Shown one piece after another: positions 29,490 to 62,848 of a stretch of 64,000 nucleotides of DNA. Each line of letters starts with the position of its first letter. Position 1 is the stretch's first letter. The DNA is from Pristiophorus japonicus (taxonomy: Eukaryota): contig NC_091990.1 in NCBI RefSeq assembly GCF_044704955.1, forward strand, positions 30,256,001 to 30,320,000, in the 5' to 3' direction. The position numbers were made by a program, and so were the translations under genes. The notes under the pieces are model-generated. The model did no database searches. It had not been told where the DNA came from and saw only the letters and a program-made list of their open reading frames with translations.

Positions 29490-30325
<836 letters not shown>

Positions 30326-32140: not shown

Positions 32141-33909
32141 CAAAGAACTTGCATAGAAAGTGCCTTATTCACATCTTTAGGGCATCAAGTGCCAATGAAT
32201 GCTTTTTGAAGTGTAGTTACTGTTGTTAAATAGGCAATCACCAGTAATAAGAGTCAGCATCCAAGTTACACACAGCAAGATTCAACAAACATCAAAGTAG
32301 GGGTTGATCAGTCAGTCAGTCAGTGTGGGGCAGTGAAACAAAAAATGTGAAGTGGGGAATGTTGGCCAAGACATCAGGGGATTTCTCAACTCATCCAAGT
32401 GGAGCTGAGTCCATGATCAGATCAGCCATGATACTGATGGCAGAACAGGCTCGAGGGGCCATATGGCCTACTCCTGTTCCTATTTCTTATGTTATGAGAT
32501 ATCACAAGGGTGGTCAAATATGTGAGTTTTGAAAAGGGCAGCAAAACAGAGGTGGGGCCAGCAGGTTTGGTGAAGCCCAGAGCCGAAACAACTAAAGGCA
32601 CATTCACCAATGGTGGGGCGCAGGCAGAATACACAAACTGAAAGAATCAGAAGGGTTCCCAGGGAAGGGAAACATTGTAAGGCTGGAGGAGGATACAGAA
32701 ATAGGGAGGGGCAAGACCATGAAGCGCAGGGGAGGGAGGGGGGGGGGGGGGGGTGGTGCAAGATTGCTGAAAGACTGGGAGGCAGTGTAGGTGATCAAGG
32801 ACAGGGGGGGGGGGGGGGGAGAAAGGGGGTGGTGATGCAGGTAGAATACATGCAACAGAGTCTTGGATGAGCTGAAGTTTACAGATAATATAGGATGAGA
32901 GGCCAGGACAGCATTGAAAGTCAAATCTGGAGGGGACAAATGCATGGATCAGGATTTCTGTGACAGGTGAGCTGAGCAGGCAATGAAATCAGAGAATATC
33001 ATAAGCTCCGCTCGGGGTTAAATAGGACACCAATGAGCTGGAGACAATGATCAGAAAGGAATTGGTGGCAGGGGTTTGGGTTTGTGGTGACAAAGGCTAG
33101 AGATAAACGTGATAGTAAATTAGAGAGCACAATGCTCAAACAGGAAATCAACTAGTTCAAATTATAAAAATGTAATAATGAATGCTTTCAATGCAGTAAT
33201 ATCAGCATTATTCATCAGTTTGGTGTTACTGAAGGGGCAACAACAATTAAGACATACCAGCATATTTTAAAAAGGTAGTCACTGCACTCAAAATAAATAC
33301 CAGTTCCTTCCACTTTAGAATAGATATTCCAGAACACAGTAAAATACATACAAATCTTAAGTTAACTAAATAACCCAAATCATTAATACAATCAACAAAA
33401 AAAATGAATACCATTTGCTTAAATCATGAGCGGCAACTTCTTGTCAGTTATATGAAAAAATGATCCATTAGATAAATTAATGTTAGCTAAATTATTAGGA
33501 GGATGCAAAGCAGTCAGAGGATTTTACTGAGACGAGTCGGGAAAGTGAGTGAGTAGGCCTTGCAGTGCTCTCGGGATTTATAGTCCTGCAGGATTAGCAC
33601 TCGGTTGTGAGTGGCTGGAAGCCCGTGCTCCAAAACACGACACTCCCTATGCAAATAGCGCTGGCTGTGCGCATGCTCATTGCGCCCAGACTTCCACACA
33701 CAGCTGCGACAATGTCTTTAATTAGATAACAACCGCCCAGTCCACCTTCATTCACAACGGCAACGACGCCCGAAGACTGCACATCGTGAAAGAAAACATC
33801 CGAAATAAAATCGTTAAACCTTAAAACGAACAAAACCGAGAAATTAAAGACAATCCATACTTGCTTATCCACCGATTAAAAACGCTCACAAACAATGCTC
33901 GCTCTTCTC

Positions 33910-34290
33910 TCAGCAGCGAACCCTAACGCGCATGCCTATTAAGGCCCGGAATATCACGTGACTCCTGACGTCACGTCCAATGACGCATCCTTTAAAAAAT
34001 ATATAAACGACGCCTGATGATCTTGCGGCGCATGCGCTTCAGCAGCCAAGTGCGAGTGCGCATGCCTATTAGGGCATGAATCATCATGTGATCCGTGACG
34101 TCACGTCGAATGACGTAATCCTTTTAAAAAAACTGTAAAAATGCTCCAGGTGACCTTACGGCGCTTGCGCGTCAGCAGTGAAGTGGCAACGCGCATGCCT
34201 ATTCCATCAAATGGCCTGGCCCATCAAGTGACGTCACGACGATTGACGCCTTCAACAAAGGACCAAGTGACCTTACGACGCATGTGCACA
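33910..34290. promoter_or_regulatory. CpG-rich promoter built from three ~130-bp tandem units with NRF1 and CRE motifs; probably bidirectional (TMEM50A / SNRPC)
   Basis: GCGCATGCCTATT at 33928, 34058 and 34191; TGACGTCA at 33966, 34096 and 34229; perfect GCGCATGCGC at 34028; TCACGTGAC E-box near 33954. Lies between two divergently oriented genes. Confidence 0.8.
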
Positions 34291-34324
34291 ACACCACCAA
34301 CAGCAGCAGCGCCGCGCCGACAAA

Positions 34325-34810
34325 ATGCCGAAGTATTACTGCGATTACTGTGATACTTACCTCACACACGACTCCCCGTCTGTCCGCAAAACGCACTGCG
34401 AGGGCCGTAAGCACAAAGAGAACGTCAAGGACTATTACCAGAAATGGATGGAGGAGCAGGCCCAAAGCCTGATCGACAAAACGACAGCCGCTTTCCGCCA
34501 GGGTAAAATCCCTCCCACCGCGCCGTTCCCGGCGCCGGCCGGCCCGCCTCCCGCCGGGGCCGCCATCCCTCCGCCGCCGGGCAATGTCGGCGTGCCGCCG
34601 CCGCGCCCCGCCATCTTGCCGGGGCCGCCGATGGGAGGGCCGCCCATGATGCCGATGATGGGCCCGGCGCCGCCCGGGATGATGCTGGTGGGCCACGGGA
34701 TGAGACCGCCGATCGGAGGCCCGATGCCCATGATGCCGGGCCCGATGATGGGGCCGCACCGGCCGATGATGGTGCCGTCCAGGCCGGGATTGATCCGGTC
34801 GGGCAGATGA
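34325..34810 (+). CDS. SNRPC: U1 snRNP protein C (U1-C), intact intronless ORF, 161 aa; probable retrogene
   Basis: [57 protein letters not shown] (matrin-type zinc finger) plus the Pro/Gly/Met-rich tail; one continuous ORF; Kozak-like AAAATG. Confidence 0.96.
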
Positions 34811-35538
34811 GCAGTGCCGTGAGGGAGTTTATTCAGTGCAGTTTTCCCGTACCCCCTGAAGCCAAGGCAGTCGGAGGGCAGCGTCGCCGTGTGAAGATCA
34901 GATTTGTAACCGTCTTTTGTTGTCAATTGCGGCATTGCATCTCCACCGCCATCTTTATTGCCACCAGCCCGCTGCGGGTATTACCAGCGCATTTCTGGCT
35001 TGTAACCCAGCGATTTATTGTAGTCTTCATTAGTGCAACTTTCACCTTTTGTAAATGCCCGGTTGAGAGCGAGGGTTTCACTGATTCTGGAATTCTACAG
35101 CTTTTGCAGAAAACAGACGGCTTGCGTAACATTTTTCTGTTTTTTTAATATATATGCCCCATGTGTTTAGCAGATGAACGGCAATCTGGCTTTCTAATTG
35201 TCCATTCATTTCTGGTCTTCCTGTGCCACATGCCATTCCTTGGCCGGAAAGAGGATGGCTGGTTGGAAATCCTCGAGTTCCCATACAGTTCTAAATTTTG
35301 TTTCTTATCCACTAAATCAAAGATTCGCGGCTGTGGCTGACCCATTTGACTGTGCAAATGCATTTAGTCATAAAATATTGGATTAAATTGTATGTGGATG
35401 TTCTTATTTCTTTCTCCATAATGGTTTTGAGTAACTGAACCAACCAGCTGAAAAACTTAACTTGGAAGTGCACTGATATTAAACGTAACAATTTGTTTAG
35501 TTGCATTCTTTTGCAATTAATTTAGTGGAAATCTCTAT

Positions 35539-35544
35539 AATAAA
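35539..35544 (+). terminator. Candidate polyadenylation signal of SNRPC
   Basis: AATAAA about 730 nt after the stop, followed by a T/GT-rich tract; a second AATAAA near 35590. Confidence 0.5.
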
Positions 35545-36716
35545 CTTCATACTTTGGACAGACCTGGTTTCTTTTGCTGTCTTATAAAAAATAAAATGAA
35601 GCTGTTATTTTGGACCTGAAACGTGGTGTAAAGAAACAGAAATAATTGTTCATCTCAGATACTGTATTAATAGGTGAGTTGATTGCCCAAAAGTGGAAGG
35701 AATTTGTAAATGGGATTATCTCATTTTGAGAGAAGCTTATTGTGCAATTTTAGACTAGTTTCTTGTACAAATGTTGTCAAATTATCTAATTGGGGATGTG
35801 ATTATGCTAGAGCTGTTGATTTGTGTGTATTTATAAGAGAATGAGGGTTGCCCTATGTAGATTATATTCTATATTCTAACATACTTATTGTATATAATTA
35901 AAAGAAATGAGACAGGACAGTTTTATTCCACCAAAAGCGTTTAAGACACAGCAGTATTGCGTAACTCCTGCTGTCAAAAGTGAAGCTATATAGAATAGAA
36001 TGTTTCTAACCTATCTTGTGTCTGTCTCAAACCTTTCCACTACAAGTGCCACATTCTGCCTTTGCTGCAATGACATAAAACCAGCATTTCTGCACCAGCG
36101 TGCTATTTGCTATTTTCCCACTCCAATAAGTAAGGTCTCCAGTGTTAGCATTCATTCCTCGAGTCAGAAAATCAAGGGTTCAGAGACTTCAGCATATAAT
36201 TTAACCTAACATTTTAATACTGCTGTCTAAGGTGTGTTCTTTTGGATGAGATGATAAACTGAGTTTGTCTCCTCGAGTTGTAAAAGATCCCATGAAATAT
36301 TTGAAGAGGAGTATCCCTTGGCTAATCTCACCAAAACATTATCTGGTCATGTATCTTTGCTGTTTTGGCTGCTGTACTTCCCTACATTACAAGCGAATAC
36401 GCTTCAAAGTACTTCAGTTGGCTGTGACGTGTTTTGAGATTGTGAAATGTGCTTTTTTTTTAATATTCATTCACGGAATGTAGGCGTTACTGGCGAGGTC
36501 AGCATTTATTGCCCTAATTCCCCATGAGAAGCTGGTTTGGAGCCACCTTATGCAACTGAGTGGCTGGTGAGCCTTTTCAGAGGGCAGTTAAGAGTCAACC
36601 ACATTGCTGTGGGTCTGGAGTCACACATAGGCCAGACTGGGTAAGGACGGCAGATTTCCTTCCCTAAAGGACATTAGTGAACCAGATGGGTTTTTACGAC
36701 AATCCTGTAGTTTTAT

Positions 36717-59371: not shown

Positions 59372-62300
59372 TGTCATGTATTTAACTGTCATTGTAACCC
59401 ATGTATAAACTGACCTAAGTTGTACACCGTGAGAACATTGACCACTAGGTGGTGAACTTGTGGGAGATACTCCTAACCTGGACTTTCAGGTATAAAAGGG
59501 AAAGCTCCAACCACCTTCATCACTTCAGTGCTGGCAAATAAAGGTTACTGGTCACAGAGTGACCTTCTCTCAAGTATGGGCCTCGTGTGCATTTATACTG
59601 TAGAGTAAGGACATATTATTGGCGACGAGAAACTGGGATTTAAACCACACGAGCATGGCCACTAGCAGCACAGACGTGAGTTACTGTGTTGGTGATGATT
59701 GGGACGATTTTATTGAGAGACTACAGCAACGTTTCATCACTAAGGAATGGCTGGGACAGGATTCGGCCGACAAACACAGGGCTCATCTCCTGACGGTTTG
59801 TGGATCCAGGACATACTCCCTGATGAAGGACCTTCTAGCGCCAGAGAAGCCGGCGGACAAGACGTTCAAAGAGCTCAGTAAGTTGATCACATAAGTGATT
59901 CACATAAACCCGGACACCAGGCCAGTACACCACAAGGCCAGAGTGGTGCCGTACGTGATGCGGGAAAAGATAGAAGGCGAATTGGACCGCCTGCTGAGGG
60001 AAGTCATCATCTCGCCAGTCGAATTCAGTGATTGGGCGAGCCCGATTGTGCCAGTGCTCAAGGTGGATGGGTCGGCCAGGATATGTGGTGATTACAAGGC
60101 CACCATCAATTGGGTGTCACTCCAAGACCAGTACCCGCTACCGAGAGTGGAGGACCTCTTTGCGACGCTATCCGGTGGCAAACTTTTTTCAAAATTGGAC
60201 CAGACCTCAGCTTACATGACCCAGGAGCTGGCGCGTGAGTCGAAGAAGCTGACCACCATCACGATATACAAGGGGTTGTTTGAGTACAACAGATGTCCGT
60301 TTGGGATTCGCTCGGCCGCCGCGATCTTTCTACGAAATATGGAAAGCCTCCTCAAGTCGATTCCAAGGACAGTGGTTTTTCAAGACGACATCCTCATCAC
60401 GGGTTGTGATACTGAAGAAGACTTCCGCAACCTGGAGGAGGTGCTACGCAGACTGGACTGGGTAGGTCTGCGACTGAAAAAGTCAAAGTGCGTCTTCCTA
60501 GCTCCAGAGATAGAATTCCTGGGGATGAGGGTAGCAGCAGACGGGATCAGACTACTGCGTCCAAAACGGAAGCGATCCAGAGAGCACCCAGACCCGGTAA
60601 CACAACGGAGCTACGTTCGTTCCTGGGGCTCCTGAACTATTTTGGTAACTTTCTTCCCAAATTGAGCACGCTGTTAGAGCCGCTACACGTGCTCCTACGC
60701 AAAGGTCGCGAATGGGTCTGGGGGGACAGCCAGGAAAGGGCTTTTGATAGAGCACGAAATTTGTTATGCTCCAACAATCTGTTAATGCTATATGACCCAT
60801 GTAAGAAACTTGTTTTAACGTGCGACGCGTCGTCCTATGGGGTCGGGTGTGTGTTGCAGCATTTTAATGCCAAGGGTCAGTTACAGCTGGTAGCTTATGC
60901 CTCCAGAAGTCTGTCCCAGGCAGAACGGGGCTACGGGATGGTAGAAAAGGAAGCGCTTGCATGTGTATATACTGTAAAAAAAATGCACTGGTGCCTGTTT
61001 GGCAGGAAATTTGAGCTGGAGACAGATCACAAACCCCTAACATCCCTTTTGGCTGACAACAAGGCCATAAATGCATCGGCCCGCATACAGAGATGGGCAC
61101 TCACGTTAGCCGCCTATGACTATACAATTCGGCACAGACCGGGCACTGAAAACTGCGCCGATGCACTCAACAGGCTTCCACTAGCCACCACCGAGGGGGC
61201 AACTGAGCGTGCTGCTGAGATGGTCATGGCTGTTGAAGCTTTCAAAAGCGAAGGCTCACCAGTGATAGCCCGTCAGATTAAAGTCTGGACAAATAGAGAC
61301 CCGCTATTGTCTCTAGTCAAGAAATGTGTCCTGAATGGGAACTGGACAGCCACGTACGGGGCATGCCCTGAGGAATTCAAACCATTTCACAGTCGCAAGG
61401 ATGAACTCTTGATTCAGGCCGATTGCCTACTATGGGGAAACCGAGTAGTCATGCCCCAGATGGGCAGAGAGATGTTCATCAGAGAACTCCACAATGAGCA
61501 CCCGGGCATTGTCATGGTGAAGGCAATTGCCAGGTCACACATTTGGTGGCCAGGGATAGATGCAGACCTGGAACTTTGAGTTCGCAGGTACAACACGTGT
61601 GCCCAGCTGGGCGATGCACCCAGGGAAGCCCCCCTTAGCTCCTGGCCATGACCCGCCAAGCCATGGTCACGCATCCATGTGGACTACGCAGGTCCTTTCA
61701 TGGGAAAAATGTTTTTGGTTGTAGTAGACGCCTACTCCAAATGGATCGAGTGTGACATTCTCAATTCAAGCACATCCTCTGCCACGGTAGAAAGTCTACG
61801 GGCAATGTTCGCCGCCCATGGTCTACCGGACATCTTGGTCAGCGACAATGGCGCGTGCTTTACAAGCATTGAATTCCAGGACTTCATGGCAGGAAATGGT
61901 ATCAACCATGTCAGAACGGCACCGTTCAAGCCGGCCTCAAACGGCCAGGTGGAACGAGCAGTGCAGATAATCAAACGGGATGCTCAGAATTCAAGGGGGT
62001 TCCCTTCAAAGCCGCTTATCACGCCTCCTGTTGGCCAATAGATCCCGACGACACTCGCTCACAGGGGTCCCACCCGCAGAGCTGCTAATGAAAAGGATGC
62101 TCAAAACCAGGTTATCCCTTATACACCCCACCATGAAAGAAATTGTTGAGAGCAGGCGCCAGTCACAATGTGACTACCATGACAGGAATGCGAGGGCACG
62201 ATGTATTGATGTTAATGACCCTGTCTTTGTCCTCAACGACGCTACAGGGCCTAAATGGCTAGCAGGCACTGTGATTGCCAAAGAGGGGAATAGGATTCTG

Positions 62301-62848
62301 GTAGTTAAACTTACCAATGGACAAATCTGCCGCAAACACGTGGATCAAACAAAAAGGAGGTTCAGCAACCCCATAGAAGAAGCAGAGGAAGAACACGATG
62401 TAGAGTTCACTCCTCCACAGGTGACCGAAACACCGGAACCAAGTGGAGGAGAGCCCTGTAGGCAGGCCTGAGGCACCGCAAACAACAGACACTCAGGCCA
62501 GTGCCCAACAACCTGAGCCCCAACTCAGGCGCTCTACAAGGGAGCGTAAACCACCAGAGCGACTTAACCTGTGATCCCAATAAGACTTTGGGGGGAGGTG
62601 ATGTCAGGTATTTAACTGTCATTGTAACCCATGTATAAACTGACCTAAGTTGTACACCGTGAGAACATTGACCACTAGGTGGTGAACTTGTGGGAGACAC
62701 TCCTAACCTGGACTTTCAGGTATAAAAGGGGAAGCTCCATCCACCTTCATCACTTCAGTGCTGGCAAATAAAGGTTACTGGTCACAGAGTGACCGTCTCT
62801 CAAGTATGGGCCTCGTGTGCATTTATATTGTATAGTAAGGACAGATTA
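59372..62848 (+). mobile_element. Ty3/Gypsy LTR retrotransposon with both LTRs; internally deleted and frameshifted
   Basis: 247-bp LTRs at 59372-59618 and 62602-62848; PBS TGGCGACGAG; PPT ggggggagg; 5-bp TSD TTTTC; gag N-terminus, then RT (FQDD), RNase H (TCDAS, ETDHKPL) and integrase (SDNG, SNGQVER) in Gypsy order. Confidence 0.95.

Follow-up and report, generated by a model that had tools for sequence, protein, structure and literature searches.

A tandemly triplicated NRF1-CRE module between TMEM50A and an intronless SNRPC gene in a sawshark: a probable constitutive promoter

Gene content and setting of the locus

The sequence considered here is a 64-kb window of the sawshark Pristiophorus japonicus, the window being the whole stretch of DNA that was analysed. 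From approximately 2700 to 55700 the gene order is Rh (plus strand), TMEM50A (minus), SNRPC (plus) and mgst3b (minus). We take the plus-strand exon near 2.7 kb to be of the Rh type, and the N-terminal extension of mgst3b is common to a catshark record. Three mgst3b exons are identical at every letter to those of a Pristiophorus japonicus record. TMEM50A and SNRPC are arranged head-to-head. The first coding exon of TMEM50A is found at 29523-29622 on the minus strand, with further coding exons running down from 29622, and the coding sequence of SNRPC, which specifies an intact U1-C protein of 161 amino acids, is found at 34325-34810 on the plus strand (GC3 0.83). Between the two genes lies an array of three tandem units. 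A CpG island (33501-35000, no strand; observed/expected 0.98-1.2) spans both the array and SNRPC, and is the sole strong island next to a gene start in the window.

In chicken and human, RSRP1 presumably faces TMEM50A in the RHCE neighbourhood. That neighbourhood includes RSRP1 and SYF2 in both species, according to the accessible part of PMC11188259. In the present window, a weak test with a few short motifs detected no RSRP1 exons. Elsewhere, the remnant of an LTR retrotransposon with broken reading frames, which we take to be of the Gypsy type, occupies 59600-62500, and many LINE fragments, presumably CR1/L2-like and Tx1-like, are present across the window.

Transcript-like cover of SNRPC

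Contigs of four (X5, X7, X9 and X14) of nineteen available runs were compared, with X5 and X7 deriving from the same organism and X9 from another. None of the nineteen is on record as RNA, and X5, X7 and X9 are read as RNA-like because they cover SNRPC and the region 3' of it deeply, and no other part. In the two samples of this organism, cover of SNRPC begins at 34290, where an adapter-like loose end precedes it, and at 34340, and in the other sample at 34310 (with 16 additional loose letters), the 5'-most cover coinciding with the end of unit 3 of the array. As assembled contigs reveal neither starts, strand nor level, the start at 34290 is a weak hint, and 34290-34324 (plus strand) is best described as the probable SNRPC 5' UTR. 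Cover on the 3' side defines a 3' UTR at 34811-35896 (plus strand), the end of which is extrapolated from contig overhang past 35800; poly(A) signals are found at 35539, 35590 and 35897. An initial annotation of this DNA had placed the array at the position of the SNRPC sense promoter, and this placement is consistent with a location directly 5' of the intronless gene and with RNA-like contigs of that gene that start no earlier than the end of unit 3. The array itself and a candidate TMEM50A exon 1 lack cover in the RNA-like contigs, which is evidence neither way. One low-depth RNA-like piece in X5, at 33597-33750, lies over a second promoter-like cluster that is described below.

Origin of the intronless SNRPC gene

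In bony vertebrates, SNRPC has introns. The sawshark coding sequence is a single ORF, and is also one continuous piece in DNA of a second species (hereafter organism C). The protein carries the plain U1-C name and belongs to a 90% cluster of seven that includes catshark, bamboo shark, two skates and a chimaera, with 93-98% identity from shark to chimaera. Glutamate is present at position 26 in all nine cartilaginous-fish U1-C proteins fetched, versus none of 236 others, and in a tree of 18 rows a 99/96 branch separates six of the nine from all other rows. The lineage-wide Ser-to-Glu change at this position lies in the U1-C zinc finger. In Narcine, a truncated and diverged U1-C-like copy of the Glu26 type, which is likely to be secondary, is found on a contig other than that of mgst3b.

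The SNRPC and mgst3b accessions are one or two numbers apart, on contigs of equal length, in four elasmobranchs (Scyliorhinus torazame, Chiloscyllium plagiosum, Amblyraja and Rhinoraja) and far apart in four of four teleosts (Lampris, Neoarius, Vanacampus and Genypterus), where accession adjacency is a proxy for gene neighbourhood. Pampus was excluded from the teleost count, as the species of its SNRPC accession is ambiguous. No poly(A) remnant or target-site duplication is obvious by eye at SNRPC, nor would either be expected at such an age. In metagenome contigs, best-segment identities and labels (80 kept of 100) gave no sign of a shark U1-C locus. On these sequence comparisons, we lean towards regarding SNRPC as an old orphan retrogene of cartilaginous fishes, in which a retrocopy has replaced its parent. 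Neither this likely orphan retrogene nor the locus is described in the papers searched, a set outside which most subscription papers lie.

Many retrogenes are testis-biased, and the initial annotation had noted that CREM-tau acts on post-meiotic genes through CREs. On a testis reading, CREM-tau acting on the three CREs of the array, all of them perfect, would drive a post-meiotic retrogene. We regard this reading as very improbable. A second, canonical U1-C was not found in cartilaginous fishes among the 120 listed of 1247 matches, nor were cartilaginous-fish names found in ten other clusters, of whose 205 members 131 were listed. The records of these fishes thus appear to hold a single U1-C lineage, to which SNRPC belongs, and this points to a housekeeping role, and the high identity of the protein from shark to chimaera and the CpG island with its NRF1 sites likewise speak against a testis promoter.

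Architecture of the array

The array is composed of three head-to-tail units with periods of 130 and 133 bp, and both the units and the periods of the initial annotation were recovered. Unit 1 (33910-34038, plus strand, 129 bp) is nearest to TMEM50A, unit 2 (34039-34171, plus strand, 133 bp) is in the middle, and unit 3 (34172-34289, plus strand, 118 bp), in which an A-rich linker is shortened and a 25-nt spacer replaced, is nearest to SNRPC. Over ungapped columns, identity is 93/129 (72%) between units 1 and 2, 72/116 (62%) between units 1 and 3, and 76/117 (65%) between units 2 and 3, with 64 of 116 columns invariant across all three. Units 1 and 2 are the most alike, which would fit two successive duplications. 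No fourth unit was found in the 130-bp flanks up- or downstream (eight shuffle tests, p 0.23-0.77), nor by a search of the 64-kb window with a three-unit profile at E below 1.6. An NRF1-like site at 33669 was considered as part of the array and rejected, as it is a separate site.

CRE motifs were called with the standard consensus pattern. The palindrome used for NRF1 is that given in the part of PMC3874167 consulted. In each unit the CREs are central and flanked on either side by an NRF1-type site, creating a roughly symmetric arrangement of motifs (to which, as to the adjoining block, no strand is assigned). The left NRF1-type core and its flank (33928-33940, 34058-34070 and 34191-34203) are invariant over 13 bp in all units, with perfect GCGCATGC cores at 33928, 34058 and 34191. 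The CRE palindrome and 2 bp beyond it (33966-33975, 34096-34105 and 34229-34238) form an invariant block of 10 bp, and the three perfect 8-bp palindromes, at 33966, 34096 and 34229, represent three of the five in the window. A half-CRE follows at 33981, 34111 and 34244. The spacing from left core to CRE is 38 bp, and from CRE to half-CRE 15 bp, in each of units 1, 2 and 3. At the right end, a TGAYCTTRCG block precedes the second NRF1-type site (34018-34037, 34151-34170 and 34268-34287), which is a full palindrome in unit 1, has one change in unit 2, and two in unit 3. The initial annotation had described both the CREs and the NRF1 cores as kept; this holds for the CREs and for the left cores, and for the right-hand site in unit 1 only.

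Additional motifs in unit 1 are those that we take to be a CArG-like box (33935-33944, perfect), an E-box (33955-33960), a CCAAT box (33977) and a TATA-like run (34000-34006). The CArG-like box, one of six perfect matches in the window, has one mismatch in unit 2 and is lost in unit 3; a pairing of CArG and CRE recalls signal-responsive promoters. The unit 3 spacer at 34197-34230 resembles a 17-nt tandem pair (76% alike, borderline by chance), with the 38-bp spacing unchanged.

The units could also be read as a small-RNA gene, as a mobile element or as viral DNA, and for a small RNA there is the observation that unit 2 on the plus strand folds better than shuffled sequences (z -2.74, in one of six folds). 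However, no Rfam match was found at E values up to 5 and no tRNA, and none of 18 predicted pairs shows two-sided change. For mobile or viral DNA, blastn and nhmmer found no other copy of the unit within the 64-kb window, and no pattern match was found in viral and metagenome contigs, which also argues against the dispersed repeat that the initial annotation had named as a way for its own reading to fail. We consider all readings of this kind highly improbable. Two further candidates were rejected. One was an snRNA-type enhancer that would include the octamer at 33649, as two letters of the octamer differ in organism C and no RNA family is near. The other was a splice donor on the minus strand within the TGAYCTTRCG block, given low rough scores.

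Comparison with a second species

For organism C, a single DNA contig covers 33789-35398. On the TMEM50A side, a conserved block at 33789-33911 (minus strand, 15 differences in 122 positions), with a weak donor after 33861, is a candidate non-coding exon 1 of TMEM50A, and it stops where the array begins. The array interval, 33911-34316, is represented by 367 letters in organism C versus 405 here, whereas two units would give approximately 275. Within it, only 34146-34233, which includes the unit 3 spacer, aligned at 80% (10 differences and 7 gap letters); no alignment at this level was obtained for 33912-34145 (units 1 and 2) or for 34234-34315, and the unit number in organism C therefore rests on length alone. 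When 34146-34233 is compared with the unit 1/2 junction of the sawshark itself, 18 of 81 positions differ and there are 14 gap letters. Given the 367-letter length, and a unit 2/3 junction that is closer between the species than between the junctions of one array, the triplication probably predates the split from organism C.

Beyond the array, a motif that we take to be ZNF143-like (33567-33592, 26 bp) and the separate NRF1-type site (33666-33681, 16 bp), neither assigned a strand, are unchanged in organism C (p 0.03-0.04 for this invariance, from 40 listed of 229 difference rows). The interval 33567-33681 appears to be a second promoter-like cluster, and could be the promoter of TMEM50A instead of the array; its presence makes it less certain that TMEM50A is driven by the array. 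In the 5' intron of TMEM50A, a 65-bp block at 33289-33353, near a weak donor after 33301, has five differences in organism C, and is possibly a small non-coding exon or element.

Retention of motifs and drift of spacers

The units provide their own test of constraint, in that motifs can be called on one unit by consensus patterns and identity scored between the other two, a design that reduces circularity. In the three such held-out comparisons, identity of motif versus remaining positions was 31/41 versus 44/75 (p 0.051, a borderline result), 30/37 versus 42/79 (p 0.003) and 26/27 versus 63/89 (p 0.003). When no motifs are defined beforehand, the longest stretches invariant in all units are three blocks of 13, 10 and 7 bp. 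Their sum of 30 bp was reached in none of 630 identity-matched and none of 1055 total neutral simulations with indels, whereas the longest block of 13 was reached in 4, and the runs score in 2, of the 630, under a neutral model with uniform rates and without gene conversion. Retention of motifs thus exceeds that expected from uniform neutral change, by simulation and by held-out test, as the initial annotation had anticipated in stating that motifs outlast spacers.

Spacers adjoining the motifs are at the random level of identity, and are 45-66% different between units. For instance, the spacer that separates the left core from the CRE, 25 nt long in every unit and approximately 50% GC, has 2 invariant letters of 25, with unit 3 matching the others at just 4 and 5 positions. 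Kept blocks extend past NRF1 and CRE to the unit border, to the flank of the left core (CArG-like in unit 1), and to the TGAYCTTRCG block. The near saturation of the spacers to unit 3 indicates that the duplication event is old.

An improbable reading of these patterns is that the array is a mutational by-product of duplications at an NRF1 promoter active in the germline, with one or two units mattering and the identity of blocks resulting from conversion or uneven rates. At sites active in human spermatogonia, motifs such as that of NRF1 are often duplicated by short insertions of 5-20 bp, as reported in the available part of PMC8559717, and in organism C no alignment at 80% was obtained for units 1 and 2. 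However, the duplications described in human are far shorter than 130 bp, and the identity in the array is three-way and coincident with the motifs, the middle unit included, beside spacers at the random level.

A constitutive promoter of three copies

The three copies jointly probably form a constitutive promoter for SNRPC, and probably also for TMEM50A, as judged from the sequence. Under this model, a single CpG-island module of approximately 130 bp, with the order NRF1 site, CRE, half-CRE and NRF1 site, would have lain between the head-to-head TMEM50A and SNRPC genes. Two rounds of duplication in an early ancestor among the sharks would then have produced the array, probably because a short CAGCAG repeat bordering the units allowed slippage or unequal exchange. 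To judge from the motifs, all three copies may still bind NRF1 and CREB/ATF-type factors, and together would form one homotypic cluster. This cluster would hold the island open and sustain constitutive SNRPC transcription that starts immediately downstream of unit 3, with TMEM50A probably transcribed from a point immediately ahead of unit 1. Under selection for factor binding, the motifs and their inner spacing would be held, and the spacers would drift.

The presence of the full motif set in every unit implies that the motifs predate the duplication, and that an existing NRF1/CRE CpG-island promoter was multiplied. The suggestion of the initial annotation that amplification created the sense promoter is thus not sustained; that it strengthened the promoter is plausible.

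Components of this model have precedents. NRF1 and CRE activate the Plk4 promoter, according to the part of PMC3874167 available, and the same two motif types are there combined in one short promoter, whereas here three copies of the whole predicted module stand in a row, each with the same inner spacing. Bidirectional promoters are enriched in NRF1, bZIP and ZNF143 motifs, as stated in the accessible text of PMC11754675. The human germline duplications of PMC8559717, in the sections consulted, likewise raise the number of NRF1 sites within active regulatory DNA by tandem duplication, but are rare variants of 5-20 bp, as opposed to a fixed multi-motif unit of approximately 130 bp with extensively diverged spacers. 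Promoter capture in a head-to-head arrangement is described for mammals, as are orphan retrogenes, in the consulted part of PMC4772013. To the extent of that text, the resemblance to retrogenes on bidirectional CpG-island promoters lies in an intronless copy head-to-head with an older gene at a CpG island, and that to orphan retrogenes in the lack of a parent in the protein records of the lineage, loss of the parent being likely in the present case. The differences are that the lineage is that of cartilaginous fishes, that the gene product is a core component of the U1 snRNP, and that the promoter between the two genes occurs in three tandem copies.

A more far-reaching proposal is that the duplication enabled the retrocopy, in that a one-unit TMEM50A promoter was too weak on the opposite strand, tripling raised its output, and the parental SNRPC was then lost; we consider this possible but unlikely. 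The array fills the gap between the TMEM50A-side block (ending at 33911) and the cover of SNRPC (from 34290), and the event is old. Retrocopies can also use the bidirectional promoters of neighbours, and orphan retrogenes are mostly associated with CpG islands, in the portion of PMC4772013 seen. Against an enabling role, a single unit already carries every motif, and the proposal hinges on the order of SNRPC retro-insertion and duplication.

The locus is a good new instance of known processes, and no new mechanism is required. For cartilaginous fishes, an unlikely, fuller form of the enabling proposal would be that the intron-bearing U1-C gene was lost and that the spliceosome runs on a retrocopy across the TMEM50A promoter, the triplication of which permitted the loss of the parent, with this last causal link being the uncertain step. 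The array can be read as footprinting done by nature, in which an old module present in triplicate reveals which motifs and spacings are kept. On the fuller form of the enabling proposal, the copies would record the letters and the spacings, of 38 and 15 bp, that an NRF1-CRE module needs.
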